From Magnetospirillum sp. (GTDB lineage Bacteria > Pseudomonadota > Alphaproteobacteria > CACIAM-22H2), in NCBI GenBank assembly GCA_027532905.1, contig JAPZUA010000001.1, positions 147,565-211,564 of the forward strand: a DNA stretch of 64,000 bases. Direction: 5' to 3'. Under the pieces are notes generated by a model. The model worked only from the letters and a program-made list of their open reading frames with translations. It was not told where the DNA came from and did no database searches. Made by a program: the position numbers and the translations under genes. Positions within the stretch are counted from its first letter, which is position 1. Every line of letters begins with the position of its first letter. Positions 2,652 through 15,278 of the stretch are shown here, piece after piece.

Positions 2652-3812
2652 ATGGCGCCCAAGGCCAATTGGAACTATCCGACGACGATCTGGGCGGGCC
2701 CCGGCCGCGTGGCCGAGCTGCCGGCCGCATGCAAACGCCTCGGCATCGCCAGGCCCTTGCTCGTGACCGACAAGGGCCTTGCCGCGACGGCGATGGTGCG
2801 CGCGGCACTCGCCGCAACGGGGGCCGCCCTGTTCGCCGACGTGCGCGGCAATCCGACAGGCAGCAATGTCGCGGCCGGCGTTGCCGCCCTCAAAGCCGGC
2901 GGCCACGACGGGGTAATCGCGTTCGGCGGCGGTTCGGGCCTCGACGCCGCCAAGGCGATAGCACTGATGGCAGGCCAGACGCAGCCTTTATGGGATTTCG
3001 AGGATGTCGGCGACAATTTCAAACGCGTCGATCCAGCCGGCATGCTGCCGGTCGTGGCCGTGCCGACCACGTCGGGGACGGGCTCGGAGACGGGTCGTGC
3101 ATCGGTCATCACCGACGAAGCCGCACATGTCAAAAAGATCATCTTTCATCCCAAAATGATGCCGGGGATCGTGATCCTCGATCCCGAACTCACGGTGGGT
3201 TTGCCGGCAAACCTCACGGCCGCCACCGGCATCGATGCGTTCGTGCATTGCTTCGAAGCCTTCTGCGCGCCCGGTTTCCATCCGATGGCCGAAGGCATTG
3301 CGCTCGAAGGCATGCGGCTGGTCAAAGACTGGCTGCCGCGCGCGTTTGCAAACGGGGCCGATATCGAAGCGCGCGCGCAGATGCAGGCGGCCGCCAGCAT
3401 GGGGGCGGTTGCGTTCCAGAAGGGGTTGGGCGGTGTGCATGCGCTTGCCCACCCGATTGGTGCCGTGTTCGACACGCATCACGGCCTCACCAACGCCGTG
3501 CTGCTGCCTTATGTGATGCAGCGCAACCGGGCGGCCATTACCGGGCGCATGGGCCGCCTCGCGCGTACGCTCGATCTTGCCGCCTCTGCCAAGCAAGCCG
3601 GCGATTTCGACGCCGTCCTTGCCTGGGTTCTCGAATTCCGCGCCAAGCTCGCCATTCCGCCCGCCCTTGCGGCCCTGGGTCTCGACGCGGCGCGCGCCGA
3701 CGAAATCGGCGCCATGGCGGCGGTCGACCCCTCGGCGGACGGCAATCCCTGCCCGCTCGACGCCACCGACTACGCGGAAATCTACCGCGCGGCGATAGCC
3801 GGAAAAATTTAA
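2652..3812 (+). CDS. iron-containing alcohol dehydrogenase
   Basis: Fe-ADH motifs GGGSGLDAAKAIAL, VPTTSGTGSE and HALAHPIG. Internal ATG at 2652 preceded by GAGG. The upstream part of ORF 2358 is Arg-rich junk. Confidence 0.8.
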   Translation: MAPKANWNYPTTIWAGPGRVAELPAACKRLGIARPLLVTDKGLAATAMVRAALAATGAALFADVRGNPTGSNVAAGVAALKAGGHDGVIAFGGGSGLDAAKAIALMAGQTQPLWDFEDVGDNFKRVDPAGMLPVVAVPTTSGTGSETGRASVITDEAAHVKKIIFHPKMMPGIVILDPELTVGLPANLTAATGIDAFVHCFEAFCAPGFHPMAEGIALEGMRLVKDWLPRAFANGADIEARAQMQAAASMGAVAFQKGLGGVHALAHPIGAVFDTHHGLTNAVLLPYVMQRNRAAITGRMGRLARTLDLAASAKQAGDFDAVLAWVLEFRAKLAIPPALAALGLDAARADEIGAMAAVDPSADGNPCPLDATDYAEIYRAAIAGKI

Positions 3813-3879
3813 CTCCGAGTTAGCGATTTCGAGGCTAGTTTCGGATCCAACCTGACCCTTTAACGCTTGCGGACCATCA

Positions 3880-4782
3880 ATGTCGAAAATCGAACTGTCG
3901 GACGACGAGTATTTCGCGATCGAAGACGCGCTGCAGAACAGCAGCCGCGGCCGCGCGTTCCTCCGTGCGCGCGACGCGCGGTCGCGCGTGGTGGCGGTCG
4001 ACGAGGCGCGGCGCATCGCCGCTTCGTTCCGCGAATGGACGATCCGGCAAATGGGGACCGTCAAGGAAACGCAGAGCGTCGAAGTGCTGCGCGCCGAGCT
4101 GCAGAGCATGGCGGCCCATATCCAAGCCGCCAAAAACGAAATCGCGTCGATCCACAACAAGGATCCCAAGGCCGCGATCTCCGACAACCGCATCAACAGC
4201 GCCACGAGCGAGCTCGACCAGATCGTCGCCTCGACCGAGCGTGCGACCTCCGACATTCTGAATGCCGCCGAACGGATCATGGAAGTGGCCGGCCATCTGC
4301 CGCCGGAACATGCCGAAGCGGCCCAGGTGCTCAACGACCAGGCGACCGAAATCTTCACCGCCTGCTCGTTCCAGGATATCACCGGCCAGCGCATCTCGAA
4401 GGTCGTCAATACGCTGCGCTACATCGACCAACGCGTGAACGCGATGGTCGAGATCTGGGGCCTCGACAATCTGCCGACCGCCACCGCCAAGTCCGACGCC
4501 AATGCCGACAAGCGGGAAAACGCGCATCTGCTGAACGGCCCCGCGATGCCGGGCCAGGGCCGCACGCAAGACGAAATCGACGCGCTTCTCGAAGGTGCGA
4601 GCTTCGACGCTCCCATCCCGCGCGCCGAGCCGCCGCCGCAGGCAGCAAAAAACCCGGCGCCCGCACCGGCCGCGGCGCCTGCACCGGCCCCCGCACCGGC
4701 CCCAAAGCCTGCGGCAGCGCCGGCGGCAGCGCCCGCCGGGGCGACCGCCTCGCAGGCCGACATCGACAAGCTCTTCGATTGA
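3880..4782 (+). CDS. cheZ: chemotaxis phosphatase CheZ homolog with C-terminal Pro/Ala-rich linker
   Basis: Active-site signature FQDITGQRISKVVNTLRYIDQRV matches E. coli CheZ D143/Q147. C-terminal ASQADIDKLFD resembles the CheZ CheY-binding tail (ASQDQVDDLLDSLGF). Long PAPAPAAAP linker. Confidence 0.75.
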   Translation: MSKIELSDDEYFAIEDALQNSSRGRAFLRARDARSRVVAVDEARRIAASFREWTIRQMGTVKETQSVEVLRAELQSMAAHIQAAKNEIASIHNKDPKAAISDNRINSATSELDQIVASTERATSDILNAAERIMEVAGHLPPEHAEAAQVLNDQATEIFTACSFQDITGQRISKVVNTLRYIDQRVNAMVEIWGLDNLPTATAKSDANADKRENAHLLNGPAMPGQGRTQDEIDALLEGASFDAPIPRAEPPPQAAKNPAPAPAAAPAPAPAPAPKPAAAPAAAPAGATASQADIDKLFD

Positions 4783-4812
4783 GCCAAGACCGGGCAGATC
4801 GGGGCTAGCAAT

Positions 4813-5913
4813 GTGCCCTCTTCCGGCGTAAAAGCCTTCACCATGGAACAAGTCAAGACACCAGAAGCGCCACCAGCGGTCGCCGGCGATATGAATGCCG
4901 GCGAGTACGACGCCGAAGGCCAGGACGCGCTCCATATTCTGCCGCTGAGCATCATCCCGCTCGAAACGCCGGGATTGCGGCGTCTGCGGCTCATCAAAAA
5001 CGTGCGGCTCGACTCAGTCGTCGAACTCTACAAAGACCAGGGTCACAAATCGGCGCAGGTGCCGCTCGACGCGCTCAACAGCGTGTTTCAGAGCTACGGC
5101 ACGCAGCTGCGCGCCGACATGCCGCTGCTGCAGAGCCTCAGCAGCATTCCCTCGTTCGACGTGTACACGCTGCGCGTGGCCTTGCGCTCCCTCAACTTGC
5201 CCATCGACGAGAAGACCGCTCTGCAGCTCTCGGACTCCAAGCGGCGCGAACTCACCGACCACATGAAGGTGTTCACGCATCCGCTGATCCAGCAGATCTA
5301 CGGCAGCGCCGAATTCGAAGTGAACGACGTATCGGATATCATGAAGTTGATTTCGTCGCCCAACCGCGACGACGCGCTCAAGAACCTGCGCATGATGTCG
5401 CAGAAGCTCAACGTACCGTTGACAGAGATCCCGCGCTTCCTCGAGGACTACGGCGACACATTCCTGTCGCTCGCCTATTTCCGCTCGTGCCTCGACAAGG
5501 TCGTCCCGCAGGTGCAGAGCTTCCTCGATTGGGTGAAGCCGCTTGACGACAACCAGATGATCAAGGGCGACCGCATGTCGAAGCAGATGCTCGACAAGAC
5601 GCGCGAGTCGATGTCGGGCGTGATCATCTCGCTGACCGGCCGCTTCGAAGCCTTCAACCGCAAAAGCTCGGATTTCTGGCGCGACATCAACGCCGACAGC
5701 TTCAGCCGCATGAAGGACATGGTGTTCTCGAACCACCGGTCGATCGGCGGCGTTTTGTGCGGCCTGTCGGTCAAGATGCAGCTGTGGCGCGACCGCTTCC
5801 CGTCGGCGAGCGGCGGCCCCAACAAGCGGCTCGAATTCGTGCGCTCGGAAGTCGTGCCGGGCATGCAGATCATCGACGAGCTCGAAGCGGCCGCGCGCAA
5901 GACCGGGCTTTAA
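4813..5913 (+). CDS. hypothetical protein, 366 aa, no recognisable domain
   Basis: Long ORF 30 nt downstream of cheZ on the same strand. GC noticeably lower than neighbours. Hydrophilic, no TM segment or signal peptide. Alternative start at M11 (4843). Confidence 0.55.
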   Translation: MPSSGVKAFTMEQVKTPEAPPAVAGDMNAGEYDAEGQDALHILPLSIIPLETPGLRRLRLIKNVRLDSVVELYKDQGHKSAQVPLDALNSVFQSYGTQLRADMPLLQSLSSIPSFDVYTLRVALRSLNLPIDEKTALQLSDSKRRELTDHMKVFTHPLIQQIYGSAEFEVNDVSDIMKLISSPNRDDALKNLRMMSQKLNVPLTEIPRFLEDYGDTFLSLAYFRSCLDKVVPQVQSFLDWVKPLDDNQMIKGDRMSKQMLDKTRESMSGVIISLTGRFEAFNRKSSDFWRDINADSFSRMKDMVFSNHRSIGGVLCGLSVKMQLWRDRFPSASGGPNKRLEFVRSEVVPGMQIIDELEAAARKTGL

Positions 5914-5930
5914 GCCCGCCTTTTCGCAAT
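5905..5930 (+). terminator. candidate intrinsic terminator
   Basis: GGGCTT-T-AAGCCC inverted repeat spanning the TAA stop, followed by GCCTTTTCG. Confidence 0.35.
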
Positions 5931-5938
5931 CGGCCCGT

Positions 5939-6002
5939 CAGAATCCGGGCCCGTCGAAATCCGGGCGACTCAAAATCCGGGCGACTCAAAATCCGTGCGA
6001 CA
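5939..6002. repeat. 4 x 16-bp tandem direct repeat (cAAAATCCGGGCGACT)
   Basis: Units are cagaatccgggcccgt / cgaaatccgggcgact / caaaatccgggcgact / caaaatccgtgcgaca. They lie between convergent genes and partly overlap the 3' end of the minus-strand ORF. Confidence 0.8.
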
Positions 6003-6660
6003 GGCAGACCATAGCGGCCTCCTGGCCGCGGAAAGGCATGCGCTTGGCCGTGGCTGCCACCGGCGTCATCACGCCCGACAGCGTTTTGAGCGGGGTGGGC
6101 ATCGGTGCGGACGCCGCGAATTTGCCGGTTGCCGCAAGCAGCGTTTTGAAATCACCCGGCAAGGCGAAATGGGCCGCGATCGACGTTCCCATCAGATCGA
6201 ACTCGCTGCCATCGAGCAATTCGCGGAACGGCGCGTTGAGCCACAGGATCGTCCCATCGGCAACGGCCACCAAAGCCGCCGCGATCGGAATTGCGTCGAG
6301 CGTTTCGGCAAGACGCGTTTCGGCCGCCTGGGCTTCGTTCTCGGCGGCGACCGCAAGGGCGAGCAGCACGCGCCCGGCCCCCAGCCCCACGACACGCAAA
6401 GTGCCTTCGTAGCGGCCGGCAAACATCGTCGCGGGGCCGCACGCCACATGCGCGACGGCCCCCTCGCTGATCGCGTCGATCGCCGCAACCAGATCAGCGG
6501 GTACATCGTCGCCGAAGGCGGGGGCCCCCGGTTCGGCGCCGGCAAATTCCTGCGCGAACAGGCTGTCGGCCCAGACCAGACGCGCCGCACGCGCGCGCCC
6601 CGGTTCTGCCGCCAATACGGCGATCCCGCCTGCAAGTTCCATTTCGCCGTCGTCCGACAT
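5986..6660 (-). CDS. standalone PAS-like domain protein
   Basis: Start MSDDGEMELAGG with GGGGGGA upstream. PAS-like segment DGTILWLNAPFRELLDGSEFDLMGTSIAAHF. No output domain. Confidence 0.45.
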   Translation of the reverse strand: MSDDGEMELAGGIAVLAAEPGRARAARLVWADSLFAQEFAGAEPGAPAFGDDVPADLVAAIDAISEGAVAHVACGPATMFAGRYEGTLRVVGLGAGRVLLALAVAAENEAQAAETRLAETLDAIPIAAALVAVADGTILWLNAPFRELLDGSEFDLMGTSIAAHFALPGDFKTLLAATGKFAASAPMPTPLKTLSGVMTPVAATAKRMPFRGQEAAMVCLSHGF

Positions 6661-6787
6661 TCCGCATCCCCCCAAGGCCCGAAACGGGCAAGTTCGCCGG
6701 ATGTTAGCCAAGAAAACGGCTCGACAGAAGCGGGCGTTACGAACATTTCCCAAGACGCGCGCGGACGGTCTAGACTTTGCGCCGCCA

Positions 6788-7566
6788 TGTTCGCAAAAGG
6801 CCCCCTGCTGATCCGCCACGCCGTCGTCACGATGCTCGATGCATTCGCGAAGACGGCGCAGGAAACGGCTGTAAAAAACGGCGGCAAGATCGATTCCGCC
6901 GACATCGCGCGCATCGGCGAAGCGATGAAGAACTCAGGCGAGATCGAGAATTTCTACCGCGCCGTTTTCGGCCAGGTCGTGGCCTCGATCGTCGAATCGC
7001 AGAACCAGCATCGGCGCATAAACGCGTTCGGCCGTCTCGTGGCGCACCCGCTCGGCGATTTTTTCCAGTCGCAGCGCCTCGACCGCGCACTTCTCCACAA
7101 TTTCTTCTTTTTCGTGCAAGCGCTGGTCGGCGAGGCCGAGAACGACTGGAACGCCACCTGCGCTGCCGTGCTCGACGAGATGCGCGACAAAGCGGGCGAA
7201 GCGTTTGCGTGGGAGACCTTCTACAACGATCCGCGCACGCAGGCGATTTTCTGGCAAGTGCTGGTGCGCATCGCCCAGTCCTTCAAGCGCTTCGACACGC
7301 GCCGCGACTGGTTCTTGCGCATCATGCAGCACAAACAGACGTCGGTGAGCCTTGCCCCCAACAAATACGTGCAGCTCGGCGACGGGCTCGACGTCGCCCA
7401 GTTCGGCAAAGACGAATTCCTCAATCTGTTCGACAGCCTGTTTGCACCGGTCAAACGCCTGACACTGCAGGAAGTCGTGCGCTTCGAGGCGGCAACGGGG
7501 CTCGCACCGCGCACGGCTTTCGACCGTTTCTTTAGCGATTTGGACCGCTACAGGCGCGAGCACTGA
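6788..7566 (+). CDS. hypothetical protein (259 aa)
   Basis: This is the 3' part of the long ORF 5995..7566 and starts at internal ATG 6788. Soluble, helical-looking, no motif recognised. Confidence 0.45.
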
Positions 7567-7618
7567 TTTTTTCGGCGGCCTTCATTGTTTGTTAAGACAT
7601 TTAGGATAAATTTTAAAT

Positions 7619-8023
7619 ATGTTGAAGATAAATCATCGCTCCCGTGTGTTTTTGGCCGCCGGCGTTGCCTGCGTGGCGCTTGCTGCCTGCACCAAAACGC
7701 CGAGTTTCCAGGGCAGCCCGCCGCTGTCGGCCGTGCCCAATAAGGTCAGCAACTTTGCGGCCCCTTATGTGAACGCTATCGTTACGCCCGGCGTGGTCGG
7801 GGCGGCGATGCTGGTCGGCCCGAACTTCCTGCCCGGGCGTTGCGACGAGATGTACCTCACCGGCGACCGCAAACTCATCTGCGACCAGATGGCGCGCTAC
7901 AACGACACGCCACTGCCGGGCAAATTGCCCGATCCCAACGCGCAGTATCGCTGCATCCGCACGCTGGGCGGCGTCACTGAATGCACCGACGCGCCGCGCG
8001 CCGCACGGATCGCGGCGCCCTAA
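7619..8023 (+). CDS. Cys-containing lipoprotein of unknown function
   Basis: Signal peptide with lipobox (VALAACT). Preceded by an AT-rich promoter-like stretch (7567-7618). Four Cys in the mature part. Confidence 0.5.
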   Translation: MLKINHRSRVFLAAGVACVALAACTKTPSFQGSPPLSAVPNKVSNFAAPYVNAIVTPGVVGAAMLVGPNFLPGRCDEMYLTGDRKLICDQMARYNDTPLPGKLPDPNAQYRCIRTLGGVTECTDAPRAARIAAP

Positions 8024-8042
8024 ACCTCAAACCTTCAAATCA

Positions 8043-8297
8043 TTACTTGGCGTCGGCAGCCGGCTTCTTCGGCACCGAGGACGGCGCTACCCACGTATTC
8101 CCGGACAAAGGCTTGCCGGGACCGGCATGGAAAACACGCGGATTGCGCGTGTTGAGTTCGTCGGCTTCTTTGTTGACCTTGGGCGGCGAATTGTTGGCGC
8201 GTGGATCGTCTGCCGCGGCGGCCGGATTGCTGCCGAACGCGGCCGAGCCTGCGATCGCCAAAGCCGTTGCCAGTGCCAAGATACCGCTGCGCGCCAT
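8043..8297 (-). CDS. small secreted protein (84 aa)
   Basis: C-terminal part of ORF 8043..9005 starting at ATG 8297 (MARSGILALATALAIAGSAAFG, signal peptide). GGGAGA RBS. Low-complexity Pro/Lys-rich mature part. Confidence 0.4.
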   Translation of the reverse strand: MARSGILALATALAIAGSAAFGSNPAAAADDPRANNSPPKVNKEADELNTRNPRVFHAGPGKPLSGNTWVAPSSVPKKPAADAK

Positions 8298-8414
8298 CGT
8301 CCATCTCCCAAATCCGGCATTCCGCCCCCTTTTCACGGGGCCGGAACGTGATAACGTCCTTGTCCTTCTTATAACATAATCGGCCTTCGACAATCTCGCT
8401 TTAAGGACAGGTAT

Positions 8415-9062
8415 TTGGAACCCACGGCCGATATCCATGCCTTGATCACCCAGTACGGGACGCTGATCTACGCGATTATCTTCGTGTGGACCTTCTTCGA
8501 GGGCGAAACCTTCGTGCTGTTTGCGGGTGCCGCTGCCCAGCAAGGCACATTGAATGTGTGGGTGCTGCTGGTTGTCGCGTGGCTCGGCAGTTTTGCCGGC
8601 GACCAGATGTGGTTTTGGATCGGCCGGCGCTACGGCAGCCAAATGCTCGAGCGGCGCCCGAAATGGCGGGCGGGCGTCGATGGCGCGCTCGAAATGCTCA
8701 AACGCTACGACACGTGGTTCATCCTGTCGTTCCGCTTCATCTACGGCGTGCGCAATTTCGCGTCGTTCGCGATGGGGGTGGCGCGCGTCGATCCGATGCG
8801 CTTTGCCGCCCTCAATTTCGTGGCGGCCTTCGTGTGGGCCGCGTCGTTCGTCGGCATCGGCTATCTGTTCGGCAGGGCACTGGAAGCGATGCTTGGCGAC
8901 GTCGTGCACTACTTCCTTTACGTGATGCTCGGCGTGTTCGTGGGCTCTTCGACGATCGTCTATCTCGTGCATCGCCACCACACGCGCAAAGCCGCGGCAC
9001 GCCAAGCGGCCAAAGACGAGGCCGCAAAAGCCGCCGCCGCCGCCGACATCGCCGCCGACTAG
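8415..9062 (+). CDS. DedA family membrane protein
   Basis: Conserved DedA/VTT core YGTLIYAIIFVWTFFEGETFVLFAG. TTG start. Confidence 0.75.
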   Translation: MEPTADIHALITQYGTLIYAIIFVWTFFEGETFVLFAGAAAQQGTLNVWVLLVVAWLGSFAGDQMWFWIGRRYGSQMLERRPKWRAGVDGALEMLKRYDTWFILSFRFIYGVRNFASFAMGVARVDPMRFAALNFVAAFVWAASFVGIGYLFGRALEAMLGDVVHYFLYVMLGVFVGSSTIVYLVHRHHTRKAAARQAAKDEAAKAAAAADIAAD

Positions 9063-9065
9063 ATT

Positions 9066-9956
9066 TCAGAACTGCAGAAGAGCGAGCGCCAAGGCCGCGA
9101 CGACGCAGGCCATGGCTGCGATCTCGGCCCAGCCCAGCGCCTCGCCCAGCAGCAGGGCCGAACTCAGCACGCCCACGACCGGAACCGCGAGCGTGCCGAT
9201 CGACGCAAGGGATGCCGGCAAGATCTCGAGCACGCGATACCACGCCCAATGGCAGAAAATCATCGGTACGGTCGCCGCATAAACAAGCCCCACGAGCGAG
9301 GGCAGCGACGGCAGGCCATGCGCAAAACCCGAGCCGCCGCCCTCGAAAACCACCATGCCGATCAGGACTGGCACGCCGCCGATCGCCAATTGCCATGCTG
9401 TGAGCGCGACGGCCGACATTTCGAAGCGCATCGCCTTGACCGCAACCGTGCCCGCCCCCCAGCCGACCGCGGCCGCCAGCATCAAAACAAGTCCCAAGGG
9501 CGACTGCGCCAGCGTATCGCCTGCGGGCAGCGCCAACAGCCCGAGACCGGCAAGCCCGCACAGGAGTGCGCCGATCTTGCGGGCACTCAGCCGCTCGCCC
9601 AGCAGCAAGGCTCCCAGCAGCGACGCCCACAGCGGCATCGTGAATGCCACCAGCACGGCACGCCCGGCCGACATCACGACAAGCCCATAGGCCGAGGTCA
9701 CGTGCCAGATCGTGATGTTGAGGAACGACGCCGCCGCCAGCGCCAAAACCCGGCCGCGCGGCAAACGCAGATCGAGCCCGCGCAGATAGCCCACCGCAAA
9801 CAGCCCGGCGGCCCCCACGTAAAGACAGATCGTGCGGAAGGTCCATGGCCCGACCTCGGCAACGGCAAGCTTCATGGCCGGCCAATTGATGCCCCACAAC
9901 AGCGCCAGGGCGACCAACAGCCACAGGCCTTCACGCCGGGCGGCAAGACTGGTCAA
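9066..9956 (-). CDS. EamA/DMT family transporter
   Basis: 296 aa with 10 predicted TM helices and the two-EamA-repeat architecture. Confidence 0.7.
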   Translation of the reverse strand: MTSLAARREGLWLLVALALLWGINWPAMKLAVAEVGPWTFRTICLYVGAAGLFAVGYLRGLDLRLPRGRVLALAAASFLNITIWHVTSAYGLVVMSAGRAVLVAFTMPLWASLLGALLLGERLSARKIGALLCGLAGLGLLALPAGDTLAQSPLGLVLMLAAAVGWGAGTVAVKAMRFEMSAVALTAWQLAIGGVPVLIGMVVFEGGGSGFAHGLPSLPSLVGLVYAATVPMIFCHWAWYRVLEILPASLASIGTLAVPVVGVLSSALLLGEALGWAEIAAMACVVAALALALLQF

Positions 9957-9962
9957 AGCGGT

Positions 9963-10205
9963 CTAGGCGCTCTTGCGGATATCGAACACGAATACGCCGT
10001 CCTGCTCGACGAGCTTTTCGAGCGTGGCCCCGGTGTTGCGGCACAAGGCTTCGAAATCGCGCACCGCCCCCGGATCCGTCGCCAGCACCTGCAAGGCGGC
10101 CCCCGCAGGCAGGCCTGCCATCGCCTTTTTGGCGCGCAGCACCGGCAGCGGGCAGTTGAGGCCTTTAAGGTCGAGGATTGTTACCGACATTTGCCCATTT
10201 CCCAT
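9963..10205 (-). CDS. tusA: TusA-like sulfurtransferase
   Basis: LDLKGLNCPLPVL CPxP motif. About 75-80 aa. Start may be M1 (10205) or M6 (10190). Confidence 0.8.
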   Translation of the reverse strand: MGNGQMSVTILDLKGLNCPLPVLRAKKAMAGLPAGAALQVLATDPGAVRDFEALCRNTGATLEKLVEQDGVFVFDIRKSA

Positions 10206-10293
10206 TCGTTTGACCGGAGCCTACGGGTTGAATATGCACGCCCGCAAGCCCTACATTCGCATCCCTGCCTTGCCCCGGAAAGACCAGCGCGCA

Positions 10294-11397
10294 ATGTCCG
10301 ACCTGCCTGTCCATCAGCTAGTTGCCCTTCTCGGTTTTGGCCTTGGGGCGGCCTTCGGCGCCGTCGTGCAGCGCACCAATTTCTGCGCGATGGGCTCGGT
10401 TTCCGACATCGTTTATCTTGAGGATTGGGGCCGCTTTCGCGCCTGGCTGCTCGCGATCGCCGTTGCGATCGCAGGAACGACAGCACTCGACGCCGCAGGC
10501 CTTGTCGATCTCAGCAAGGCCATCTACGCCACTCCCAATCTCGGCTGGCTCGGCGCGATTGTCGGCGGGCTGCTGTTCGGCATCGGCATGACGCTCGCGA
10601 GCGGCTGCGGCAGCCGCAGCCTCGCAAGGCTCGGGGCCGGCAACCTCAAAAGCCTTATCGTCGTGCTCGTGCTCGGCGTCTTCGCCTACATGACCTTGCG
10701 CGGCCTCCTCGGTGCGGCACGCGTGGCCGCGATCGAGCCCACGAATCTCGATCTGCGCGCAGCGGGCCATTCGACGCAATTGCTGCCCGGTCTGCTCGCA
10801 GCATGGACAGGTCTTGATGCCGCCAGCGTGCAGCTTGGGCTGGGGGCATCCGTCGTGCTGACGCTTGTTTGGTTCTGCCTCAAAGACCGCAGCTTCCGCA
10901 CCGATGCGCGCAATCTCGTGTCGGGCGTGCTGATCGGTCTGCTGGTCGTGGCCGGGTGGACTGCGACCGGCATCGTCGGCAACGACGATTTCGAGCCCGT
11001 CCCGCTTGCCTCCTTCACCTTCGTGGCGCCCATCGGCGATGCGCTTGTCTATCTGATGACATGGACGGGTGCGAAGATCAGCTTCGGCGTCGCCAGCGTA
11101 TTCGGCGTTGTCGCGGGGGCGTTTGTGGCCGCACGGTTGAGCGGCGAATTCCGGGTCGAAGCTTTTGCCGGTACGGCCGATCTGCTGCGCCATCTCGCCG
11201 GAGCCGCAATGATGGGAACGGGCGGCGTGCTCGCCTTGGGCTGCACGGTCGGCCAAGGCATTACGGGGCTTTCGACCTTGGCCGTGGGCTCGGTTCTGGC
11301 GTTCGCGGCCCTCGTTGCCGGTGCCGTGCTCGGGCTCAAATATCTCGAGCATGGCGGCATCGTGGCCGCCCTCAAAGCGCTGACGGCGCGCGCGTGA
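10294..11397 (+). CDS. yeeE: YeeE/YedE family thiosulfate/sulfur transporter
   Basis: Two conserved Cys loops, MTLASGCGSRSL and LALGCTVGQGITG. Divergent from tusA (TsuA-TsuB pair). Confidence 0.8.
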   Translation: MSDLPVHQLVALLGFGLGAAFGAVVQRTNFCAMGSVSDIVYLEDWGRFRAWLLAIAVAIAGTTALDAAGLVDLSKAIYATPNLGWLGAIVGGLLFGIGMTLASGCGSRSLARLGAGNLKSLIVVLVLGVFAYMTLRGLLGAARVAAIEPTNLDLRAAGHSTQLLPGLLAAWTGLDAASVQLGLGASVVLTLVWFCLKDRSFRTDARNLVSGVLIGLLVVAGWTATGIVGNDDFEPVPLASFTFVAPIGDALVYLMTWTGAKISFGVASVFGVVAGAFVAARLSGEFRVEAFAGTADLLRHLAGAAMMGTGGVLALGCTVGQGITGLSTLAVGSVLAFAALVAGAVLGLKYLEHGGIVAALKALTARA

Positions 11398-13623: not shown

Positions 13624-13959
13624 ATGAAACCGCTTCTTTCCGCGCTGTTCGGTCTGGCTCTCGGTGCGGCAAGCCTGCCCGCCGCGGTTGCCGCCCAAAC
13701 GCCGCCCGCCCCCGCTGCTGCCGCCCCCGCTGCAGGCCGCGTGCTCGTCGCCACCTGCACCGGCTGTCACGGCCAGAACGGCAAGAGTGCGGGGGCAATT
13801 CCGACCCTCGCCGGACAGAGCGAAGCGCAGATCCGCCAGGCGATGCTCGACTACAAAAACGACCGCCGCGCGGGCACGATGATGAACCGCCACGCCAAAG
13901 GCTTCAGCGACGATGAGATCGGCGCCATCGCGCGCGAAATCGCGACGAATTGGCGCTAA
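13624..13959 (+). CDS. fccA: c-type cytochrome, flavocytochrome c cytochrome subunit (FccA/SoxE-like)
   Basis: Signal peptide, CTGCHG heme-binding site, about 110 aa. Confidence 0.8.
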   Translation: MKPLLSALFGLALGAASLPAAVAAQTPPAPAAAAPAAGRVLVATCTGCHGQNGKSAGAIPTLAGQSEAQIRQAMLDYKNDRRAGTMMNRHAKGFSDDEIGAIAREIATNWR

Positions 13960-13973
13960 GGGAGATCGCACAC

Positions 13974-15278
13974 ATGGCTCAATTCAAACTCTCGCGGCGC
14001 GCGTTCGGCGCCTCGCTCCTCGCATCGAGTGCCTTGTCGGCCTGCGCCATCCGCACCGAGCCTGCACCCAAGGCCCGCGTGGTGGTCGTGGGCGGCGGCT
14101 TCGGCGGGGCAACCGCCGCCAAGTTCCTGCGCCTGGAGGATCCGGGCATTGCGGTCACACTCGTCGAACCCAAATCCGAATTCCAGACCTGCCCGTTTTC
14201 GAACTACGTGCTGTCCGGCTTCAAGACGATGGCCGATATCACGCACAATTATTCGGCCCTCACAGGTACGCATGGCGTGCGCCATATCCGCGAGACGGCC
14301 GTGGCGATCGATGCGGCTGCCAAAACCGTGCGCACAAGCGGCGGCCAGACGCTTGCCTACGACAAGCTCGTGCTGTCGCCCGGCATCGAGATCCGCTACG
14401 GCGCCCTCGAGGGCTACGATGCAGCCGCTGCCGAGCGCATGCCGCACGCGTGGGCCGCAGGGGCACAGACGGTGCTGCTGCGCCGCCAACTCGAAGCCAT
14501 GCCGGATGGCGGGACGGTCGTGCTGTCGATCCCGGCCAACCCGTTCCGCTGCCCGCCGGGCCCGTACGAACGCATCGCGATGATCGCGCACTATCTCAAA
14601 ACGACGAAACCGCGCTCGAAGATTCTCGCCCTCGACGCCAAGGACGCGTTCTCCAAGCAGGGGCTGTTCCAGGACGGCTGGCAGAGCCAATACGGCGCTA
14701 TGATCGAGTGGGTGCCGCTCGGCAAAGATGGTAAAGTCGTGCGCGTCGATCCGGCAGCGCTCACGCTGACGTCCGAGTTCGGCGAAGTGCACAAAGCCTC
14801 GGTCGCCAACGTGATCCCGCCGCAATCGGCGGGCCGCATTGCGGTCGCAAGCGGCCTTGCAGCGACCGAGGGTGCGCTTGCCGGCTGGTGCCCGGTCGAT
14901 CCGTTCACGTTCGAATCGACGCGCGCCAAAGACATCCACGTGATCGGCGACGCGGCGATCGCGGGGGCTATGCCAAAATCGGGTTTCGCAGCCTCGAGCC
15001 AGGCAAAGTTCGTCGCACAAGCCATCGGCGCGCAGGTGAACGGCCGCCCGGTGCCGACGGCCGTGTTCGCGAATACGTGCTACTCGCTGATCACGCCCGA
15101 TTATGGCATCTCGGTCGCAGACGTGTATCGCCCGACCGCCCAAGGCATTGTAGCCGTCCAAGGTGCGGGCGGCGTGAGCCCGCGCACGCCGGCAGACGCA
15201 GCCAATTTCCGCGCTCAGGAAGCGCACTATGCGGAAGGCTGGTACGCCTCGACGACGAAGGAAACCTGGGGCAGCTGA
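13974..15278 (+). CDS. fccB: flavocytochrome c sulfide dehydrogenase flavoprotein subunit (FccB/SoxF-like)
   Basis: Tat signal SRRAFGASLLASSALSA, FAD-binding VVVVGGGFGG, and full-length similarity to FCSD flavoproteins. Confidence 0.8.
   Translation: MAQFKLSRRAFGASLLASSALSACAIRTEPAPKARVVVVGGGFGGATAAKFLRLEDPGIAVTLVEPKSEFQTCPFSNYVLSGFKTMADITHNYSALTGTHGVRHIRETAVAIDAAAKTVRTSGGQTLAYDKLVLSPGIEIRYGALEGYDAAAAERMPHAWAAGAQTVLLRRQLEAMPDGGTVVLSIPANPFRCPPGPYERIAMIAHYLKTTKPRSKILALDAKDAFSKQGLFQDGWQSQYGAMIEWVPLGKDGKVVRVDPAALTLTSEFGEVHKASVANVIPPQSAGRIAVASGLAATEGALAGWCPVDPFTFESTRAKDIHVIGDAAIAGAMPKSGFAASSQAKFVAQAIGAQVNGRPVPTAVFANTCYSLITPDYGISVADVYRPTAQGIVAVQGAGGVSPRTPADAANFRAQEAHYAEGWYASTTKETWGS

Follow-up and report, generated by a model that had tools for sequence, protein, structure and literature searches.

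A pair of genes on contig JAPZUA010000001.1, recorded as Magnetospirillum sp., was analysed within a stretch of 64,000 nucleotides (nt), which is called the window in the following. The first gene, ORF1, was identified as cheZ; the second, ORF2, codes for a soluble protein of an uncharacterized family that recurs beside cheZ in other lineages. The closest genomic matches are metagenome-assembled genomes (MAGs) labelled Tagaea, Telmatospirillum or Rhodospirillaceae, with 96% identity of ORF2, and the window belongs to a Tagaea-like alphaproteobacterium. In the window cheZ is flanked by an alcohol dehydrogenase gene upstream and by ORF2 downstream. The features of the two genes are as follows (aa, amino acids; CheY~P, phosphorylated CheY).

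3880-4782, + strand: cheZ, coding for a predicted CheY~P phosphatase of 300 aa; identified from Pfam, phmmer, homologues and dN/dS
4360-4389, + strand: ACSFQ (AXXFQ motif, residues 161-165) and DITGQ (catalytic D166-x3-Q170), aligned with FQDLTGQ of Escherichia coli CheZ
4564-4605, + strand: first CheY-binding-like peptide, TQDEIDALLEGASF (residues 229-242), which aligns with ASQDQVDDLLDSLG, the C-terminal peptide of E. coli CheZ in 1KMI_Z
4606-4746, + strand: hypervariable Pro/Ala-rich linker with imperfect 12-30-nt tandem repeats
4747-4779, + strand: second, terminal CheY-binding-like peptide, ASQADIDKLFD (residues 290-300), near-invariant across the clade
4843-5913, + strand: ORF2, a 356-aa soluble protein (the mechanical open reading frame begins at GTG 4813)

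ORF1 encodes a divergent CheZ

The original prediction, made from the sequence alone, had assigned ORF1 to CheZ, and the profile search bore this out: the Pfam model PF04344 matched with 53.6 bits at a cut-off of 30.7, the match covering residues 145-238 and thus only the C-terminal half. When PDB sequences were searched with phmmer, the sole real match was E. coli CheZ (1KMI chain Z, E = 1.7e-6, residues 80-241). The catalytic D-x3-Q helix that had been pointed out is present, FQDITGQ of the window protein (D166 and Q170) aligning with FQDLTGQ of E. coli (D143/Q147). The proposed CheY-binding-like C-terminus was also found; residues 229-242 align with the E. coli peptide, and a second copy occupies residues 290-300. 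The NCBIfam equivalog models of CheZ were matched well below their cut-offs (43.5 bits, far under 257), and ORF1 therefore represents a divergent CheZ subfamily. Of its homologues 575 were collected, many of them already named CheZ in the source records, and the ratio of nonsynonymous to synonymous substitution rates (dN/dS) against close relatives, taken within the sub-lineage that has no cheA and cheW next to the pair (see below), is 0.10-0.16. ORF1 is a genuine CheZ, with both the catalytic and the CheY-docking motifs, and the locus is predicted to encode a working CheZ phosphatase.

The window protein and E. coli CheZ (1KMI_Z) can be aligned from the hairpin via the catalytic FQD-x-TGQ to the C-terminal CheY-docking peptide. 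The window protein differs from its E. coli counterpart in being extended at the C-terminus by about 60 residues, which make up the linker and the second peptide, in its divergent N-terminal half, left unmatched by the Pfam model, and in lying in a context without a cheA-short partner. The CheZ of Azorhizobium caulinodans ORS571 carries AXXFQ and DXXXQ motifs, and its gene is located outside the che cluster (PMC7750401). It shares with the window CheZ the AXXFQ motif beside DXXXQ, the C-terminal CheY-binding region and a gene position apart from cheA and cheW, whereas the second CheY-binding-like peptide, placed behind a 47-residue Pro/Ala linker, distinguishes the window protein.

ORF2 belongs to a large family with no match among characterized proteins

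ORF2 had been described as a 366-aa protein encoded on the same strand 30 nt downstream of cheZ. These values hold for the mechanical open reading frame. The close homologues are 356 aa long and begin at an ATG equivalent to position 4843; therefore the start of ORF2 is most likely ATG 4843, and the true gap between the two genes is probably 60 nt. The designation "orphan" proved untenable, because 1013 homologues were found at E<=1e-3 in one database, and a second library, clustered at 50% identity, yielded 465 clusters, 156 of them at E<=1e-30. The named hosts are Azospirillum, Niveispirillum, Nitrospirillum, Aerophototrophica, Tagaea and unclassified Rhodospirillales or Alphaproteobacteria MAGs; the orthologue of Azospirillum brasilense is about 48% identical. 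In an alignment of 33 family members (alignment A1), most of which share 45-50% identity with the query, about 90 columns are invariant.

In agreement with the statement that ORF2 carries no recognizable motif, the window protein and up to 33 homologues gave no match in Pfam, NCBIfam, PHROG or PADLOC. The best hit of the family profile among all PDB sequences was to an unrelated enzyme (E = 0.012). The AlphaFold2 model (predicted local distance difference test, pLDDT, 80.9; predicted template modelling score, pTM, 0.75) comprises a disordered N-terminus, a small four-stranded beta unit at residues 32-74 and then helices, including four long ones at 193-353; a Foldseek search of this model against PDB returned nothing below E = 0.3. 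The remote-homology and structure checks (PDB profile search and Foldseek) yielded no family and no convincing fold for ORF2. The protein has a grand average of hydropathy of -0.30 and no transmembrane or hydrophobic segment. No paper on this family, or on a comparable neighbour of CheZ, was found in a literature search.

Two assignments suggested by details of the family were rejected. One homologue (P0096) is named DUF3150 in its NCBI record, but none of the 33 members, P0096 included, matched the DUF3150 profile at E<=1. A PilZ-like nature of the N-terminal beta unit was dismissed since RxxxR and D-x-S-x-x-G are not conserved in alignment A1, as judged by eye.

Conservation of the gene pair in the Tagaea clade

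The Tagaea-clade set consists of 29 recovered loci with an ORF2 identity of 77-96%. The cheZ-ORF2 pair is kept in all 29 of them, which answers the question of its conservation in relatives, and in each the pair is followed by a convergent gene for a 224-aa PAS-like protein. Two features of the window beyond ORF2 have to be considered here.

5986-6660, - strand: 224-aa weakly PAS-like protein, convergent with ORF2; present in every Tagaea-clade locus with 45-86% identity
6787-7566, + strand: 259-aa protein with no Pfam family, at the site occupied by cheW and cheA-REC in sister lineages

The PAS matches of the 224-aa protein are weak; dN/dS of its gene within the sub-lineage is 0.14-0.21. In most clade loci cheW and a gene for an 894-907-aa CheA with a fused receiver lie before it on the same strand, so that in the sister lineages the PAS-like gene is the last of a cheA-REC / cheW / PAS-like string. 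The window and loci L011-L017 have genes for the 259-aa and a 134-aa protein in place of cheW and cheA (6661-8023; compare L009, 11882-15096). The 259-aa gene occurs only in these loci and is absent wherever cheW and cheA are present. No remnants of cheW or cheA were detected with tblastn. Because cheA-REC and cheW are found at this place in the sister lineages, in both deeper Tagaea branches and also in a distant lineage (L122, see below), the simplest reading is that they were lost secondarily in the sub-lineage of the window.

No CheA, CheW, methyl-accepting chemotaxis protein (MCP) or CheY-like gene was found in the 64-kb window, whose other large open reading frames are metabolic or transport genes. 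The description of the pair as lying far from any che genes in a non-standard arrangement is therefore correct for the window, but in the sister lineages cheW and cheA-REC stand just past ORF2.

Composition and origin of ORF2

The original prediction had noted a lower-GC segment and had considered that ORF2 could be horizontally acquired cargo. The segment is real: GC is 0.58-0.62 across 4750-5750, and ORF2 has 0.613 as compared with 0.651 for the window and an average of 0.650 +/- 0.021 for the long open reading frames. This is the evidence in favour of a foreign islet. The accompanying claim of a more AT-rich codon usage is contradicted by the GC content at third codon positions (GC3), which at 0.87 is the highest among the 46 long open reading frames of the window (mean 0.79, standard deviation 0.04). 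In ORF2, GC is 0.59 at the first and 0.38 at the second codon position; low GC is thus confined to positions 1 and 2 and reflects amino acid composition, which is uninformative on codon usage or origin. Moreover, ORF2 occupies the same place in all relatives (see above), its dN/dS against close relatives is 0.06-0.11, the Rfam search of the whole window found no family, tRNA included, and no phage or defence family was matched in PHROG or PADLOC. The GC3 value and the conserved synteny refute acquisition as cargo, and the strong purifying selection points the same way. Horizontal acquisition is effectively excluded. Both ORF2 and cheZ are under purifying selection, ORF2 strongly so.

Linkage of ORF2 to cheZ outside the clade

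A profile built from distant members of the ORF2 family (alignment A2) was used to scan metagenome contigs, and 17-21 kb of context around each ORF2 match was covered. The flanks were searched with profile hidden Markov models of CheZ and ORF2 and with CheY, CheW, CheA and MCP queries; CheZ, REC, CheB and CheA were confirmed with Pfam. Clustering of ORF2 at 70% identity gave 47 lineages, 40 of which were informative (at least 2 kb of flank). In seven of the 40, with 338 kb of flank surveyed, cheZ was found within 5 kb of ORF2. By chance about 0.1-0.2 linked lineages would be expected; this figure is a rough estimate and not a computed null, and it assumes that the gene occurs once or twice per genome of about 4 Mb. 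Among the linked lineages ORF2 identity is 39-64%, and the arrangements are the following.

L166: cheY, cheZ and ORF2, in this order and direction
L170 (4699-9130): ORF2, cheZ (8-nt gap), a DUF2336 gene and an MCP gene, in this order and direction
L161: ORF2 followed by cheZ
L109: cheZ followed by ORF2
L122: cheB and cheY in reverse, ORF2 forward, then cheZ, cheY and an OmpR-type regulator gene in reverse, then cheA-REC and cheW forward
L131: a modified form of the order seen in L122
L092 (Aerophototrophica): convergent cheZ at a distance of 1.3 kb

In L122 ORF2 lies amid a full che cluster. Since CheA and CheW occur near ORF2 in only two lineages, cheZ is the che gene that is specifically linked. 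In an unbiased tally of recurring neighbours the commonest were those of a dapD, dapE, truA, fmt, def block (about 10 lineages, in the flanks of L126-L179), CheZ came next, and it was the only chemotaxis family among the recurring neighbours. Adjacency of ORF2 to che genes is recurrent (seven of 40 lineages and the L122 cluster), but not universal.

Other signalling genes were observed near ORF2. In the Azospirillum lipoferum/oryzae group ORF2 is followed, past a 67-aa open reading frame and at a distance of about 370 nt, by a convergent gene for an MCP whose C-terminal domain is PilZ (L006, 9440-11467; L066-L086), and in L091 an MCP gene is located just downstream. In L101, L114 and L116 ORF2 is flanked by genes for REC proteins of the single-domain or hybrid type. 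The neighbours of ORF2 in Nitrospirillum, Niveispirillum and some distant members are unrelated.

Some metagenomic lineages carry tandem ORF2 paralogues (L136, L141, L145, L146 and L160, about 8000-10200; L103 and L104), and on the 4.8-Mb contig Ga0315336_1000001 two copies lie apart from each other (L115 and L143). The DUF2336 protein of L170 was recognized by Pfam with E = 6e-64, and DUF2336, itself an uncharacterized family, may be chemotaxis-linked. A relationship of ORF2 to this protein, or to the 259-aa protein of the window, was rejected, the hhalign probability being below 1% for both.

Docking peptides and the Pro/Ala-rich linker of CheZ

In the 1KMI alignment the C-terminal docking peptide of E. 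coli CheZ corresponds to residues 229-242 of the window protein and not to its end. It is followed by the Pro/Ala-rich stretch, which comprises residues 242-288 (47 aa, 79% Pro plus Ala) and whose coding region contains tandem DNA repeats at 4654-4749. As it is placed after the docking-peptide segment and before the second copy of the motif, this stretch is not the counterpart of the linker of E. coli CheZ. Its length and sequence vary among close relatives, whereas both flanking motifs are conserved, the first being kept in all Tagaea-clade CheZ proteins. Duplication of the docking motif on either side, with conservation of the motifs while the linker varies, suggests that the Pro/Ala stretch is a tether between duplicated docking peptides and is typical of the clade. 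The "unusual 30-residue (PA)n linker" of the original prediction is therefore real, but it is longer than stated and is no peculiarity of the window protein.

Copies of the motif Q-x-[DE]-[IV]-D-x-L-[FL] were counted over the CheZ proteins P0337-P0395. Most members of the subfamily have two copies and those of Azospirillum three or four; short forms with a single motif also occur, as in some CheZ proteins from metagenomes. The Azospirillum and Niveispirillum proteins (45-50% identity) belong to the same subfamily, with repeated docking motifs and Pro/Ala-rich linkers, but differ in gene context: their cheZ directly follows a single-domain cheY and ORF2 is located elsewhere, whereas the order in the window is alcohol dehydrogenase gene, cheZ, ORF2. 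Two tethered docking peptides would catch CheY~P for the catalytic Gln170, and multiple copies on Pro/Ala tethers may bear on the avidity or the capture radius for CheY~P. In a literature search no description of multi-copy docking peptides on Pro/Ala linkers was found for CheZ.

In Azospirillum oryzae (L098, 7521-10046) cheY is followed by two tandem cheZ paralogues encoding 369 and 241 aa; no cheA or cheW was found within the 17 kb examined around this locus.

Sequence elements around cheZ and ORF2

Three elements were recognized outside the coding regions or at their borders.

3809-3824, + strand: TTAA-N7-TTAGC motif TTAACTCCGAGTTAGC, to which a dimeric regulator might bind, 56 nt before the ATG of cheZ
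4783-4842, + strand: the cheZ-ORF2 intergenic gap, with CGTAAA at 4827-4832, conserved in the clade
5938-6001, strand not assigned: 16-nt tandem repeat in four copies, TCAAAATCCGGGCGAC (Tandem Repeats Finder score 86, 85% matches)

TTAACTCCGAGTTAGC is the sole match to TTAA-N7-TTARC on both strands of the 64 kb, where 0.08 would be expected. Of 25 Tagaea-clade loci, 19 have a motif of this type at a distance of 63-104 nt upstream of cheZ; its half-sites are kept, and its spacer varies. The consensus of the CtrA box is TTAA-N7-TTAAC, from which the window motif is one base off; from this similarity we infer that CtrA may bind at 3809-3824. The motif and the stop codon of the upstream alcohol dehydrogenase gene overlap.

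The gap between cheZ and ORF2 measures 42-97 nt in the relatives, and CGT(A/T)AA is located 10-13 nt before the ATG in all clade members (about 10 nt in the window). This element may act as an internal promoter or as a signal for translation. In a promoter and terminator scan of 3600-7000, neither a sigma-70-like site nor a terminator on the + strand was found in the gap. Judged from the sequence, cheZ and ORF2 are probably co-expressed, either as a single transcript or through the conserved element in the 60-nt gap. The Tagaea-clade gaps also show a loosely conserved CAAT-like box upstream of CGT(A/T)AA. The possibility that CGTWAA is an element travelling with ORF2 was discarded, as 25 loci from outside the Tagaea clade lack it before ORF2, and for extracytoplasmic function (ECF)-type and sigma-28-type readings of the gap motif the spacing and the matches were too weak to claim.

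The tandem repeat TCAAAATCCGGGCGAC sits between the convergent ORF2 and PAS-like genes and overlaps the 3' end of the latter. Elsewhere in the window (13950-15278 and 9963-11397), genes for a flavocytochrome c sulfide dehydrogenase flavoprotein, TusA-like proteins and sulfur transport, three enolase-superfamily (MR_MLE) genes and several aldo/keto reductase genes were noticed.

Discussion

How CheZ terminates the signal is well established for E. coli, where CheA-short positions or gates CheZ. We know of no corresponding account of how CheZ is positioned or regulated in alphaproteobacteria. The CheZ of A. caulinodans reaches the cell pole without a need for CheA (PMC7750401), which implies that alphaproteobacterial CheZ has partners still to be identified. 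What is new at the locus described here is the uncharacterized ORF2 family and its linkage to cheZ, not cheZ itself.

This linkage is recurrent, extends across deep divergence and survives rearrangement, yet it is far from universal. It is in keeping with an accessory protein of the CheY~P/CheZ step whose gene is retained in single copy as part of the core genome of these bacteria and is sometimes included in che clusters. The suggestion of the original prediction that ORF2 is a CheZ-associated factor appears plausible, with comparative support from the 29 clade pairs and from the seven lineages with their varied arrangements. On the evidence of gene context the balance tips, by a modest amount, towards ORF2 being functionally tied to CheY/CheZ signalling. 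It would then assist, as an accessory protein specific to Rhodospirillales, in signal termination at the CheY~P/CheZ step. Being soluble and mainly helical, with no obvious catalytic signature, it would act through binding CheZ and/or CheY~P; for instance, it might position or gate CheZ at one of three places, namely the cell pole, the receptor array and the motor. The sub-lineage of the window appears to have lost the adjacent cheW and cheA-REC genes and has kept cheZ, ORF2 and the PAS-like gene, for which reason the cheZ-ORF2 pair would have to cooperate with chemotaxis proteins from other genomic loci. More tentatively, and with rather less than even confidence, we propose that ORF2, bound to CheZ or CheY~P, positions or gates dephosphorylation. 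The wider proposal, that ORF2 founds a new chemotaxis family, spread over alphaproteobacteria of the Rhodospirillales type and with a fold that has no solved relative, and that by binding CheZ and/or CheY~P it sets where or when dephosphorylation occurs, is put forward just as tentatively.

Lineage-restricted proteins that work with CheZ have precedents in Helicobacter, which has ChePep (PMC3143842), and in Campylobacter, which has CheO (PMC9665402). Both are clade-specific accessories that act with CheZ at the pole or the motor, which is the role proposed for ORF2; ORF2 has no sequence or domain relationship to them, and the likeness is one of functional analogy only. ChePep carries an N-terminal receiver domain. 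ORF2 was rejected as a ChePep-like protein, because neither REC nor another Pfam domain was matched at E<=1 in any of 33 family members, and because the family is of the Rhodospirillales type, not that of Campylobacterota.

Several observations weigh against a role in chemotaxis. No cheZ was found nearby in 33 of the 40 informative ORF2 lineages, and the commonest context is a housekeeping one, dapD-dapE-[ORF2]-truA-fmt-def. In Azospirillum ORF2 stands in the context hsp20-DUF1150-ORF2, and the cheZ orthologues of Azospirillum and Niveispirillum are found elsewhere, after their own cheY. Searches of PDB by sequence and structure disclosed no similarity of ORF2 to any chemotaxis protein, and the conserved motif in the gap could instead be ORF2's own promoter. 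The seven linked lineages may in part go back to a common ancestral adjacency, in which case the independent events are fewer than seven. The main rival explanation is accordingly that ORF2 is a conserved housekeeping or stress protein with no role in chemotaxis, its proximity to cheZ being inherited or accidental synteny. The dap/truA/fmt/def and hsp20 contexts, the unrelated neighbours of distant members and the fact that ORF2 is more conserved than CheZ (88% versus 69% identity to L009) all agree with it. Against it stand the seven lineages of 40 with cheZ within 5 kb, far over the rough chance estimate, the specificity for cheZ among the che genes, and the differences in order and orientation among the arrangements, which argue for a maintained proximity and not for a single frozen accident. 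We consider this explanation unlikely, though it has to be taken seriously.

A further explanation accepts the link to CheY~P but makes ORF2 its downstream target or effector, acting for example on the motor or another output, and not a partner of CheZ; ORF2 and cheZ would be linked because both handle CheY~P. The presence of cheY beside cheZ and ORF2 in L166, L122 and L131 is in line with this, as are the REC proteins flanking ORF2 in three lineages and the MCP genes downstream of it in the A. lipoferum/oryzae group and in L091. However, the Tagaea loci have no cheY beside the pair, and no known CheY-binding motif was recognized in ORF2; we judge an effector role improbable. Gene context alone cannot separate binding of CheZ from binding of CheY~P.

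The ORF2 family is large and strongly conserved and recurs beside cheZ, and it thus offers a concrete candidate gene for work in tractable relatives. If the link to cheZ fails, it remains a conserved Rhodospirillales family worth characterizing. If the proposed role is true, ORF2 would correspond in alphaproteobacteria to ChePep, CheO or CheA-short, and it might supply the polar anchor that is missing for the localization of CheZ independently of CheA; a textbook pathway would gain a new component, and a large group of "hypothetical proteins" would gain a function.

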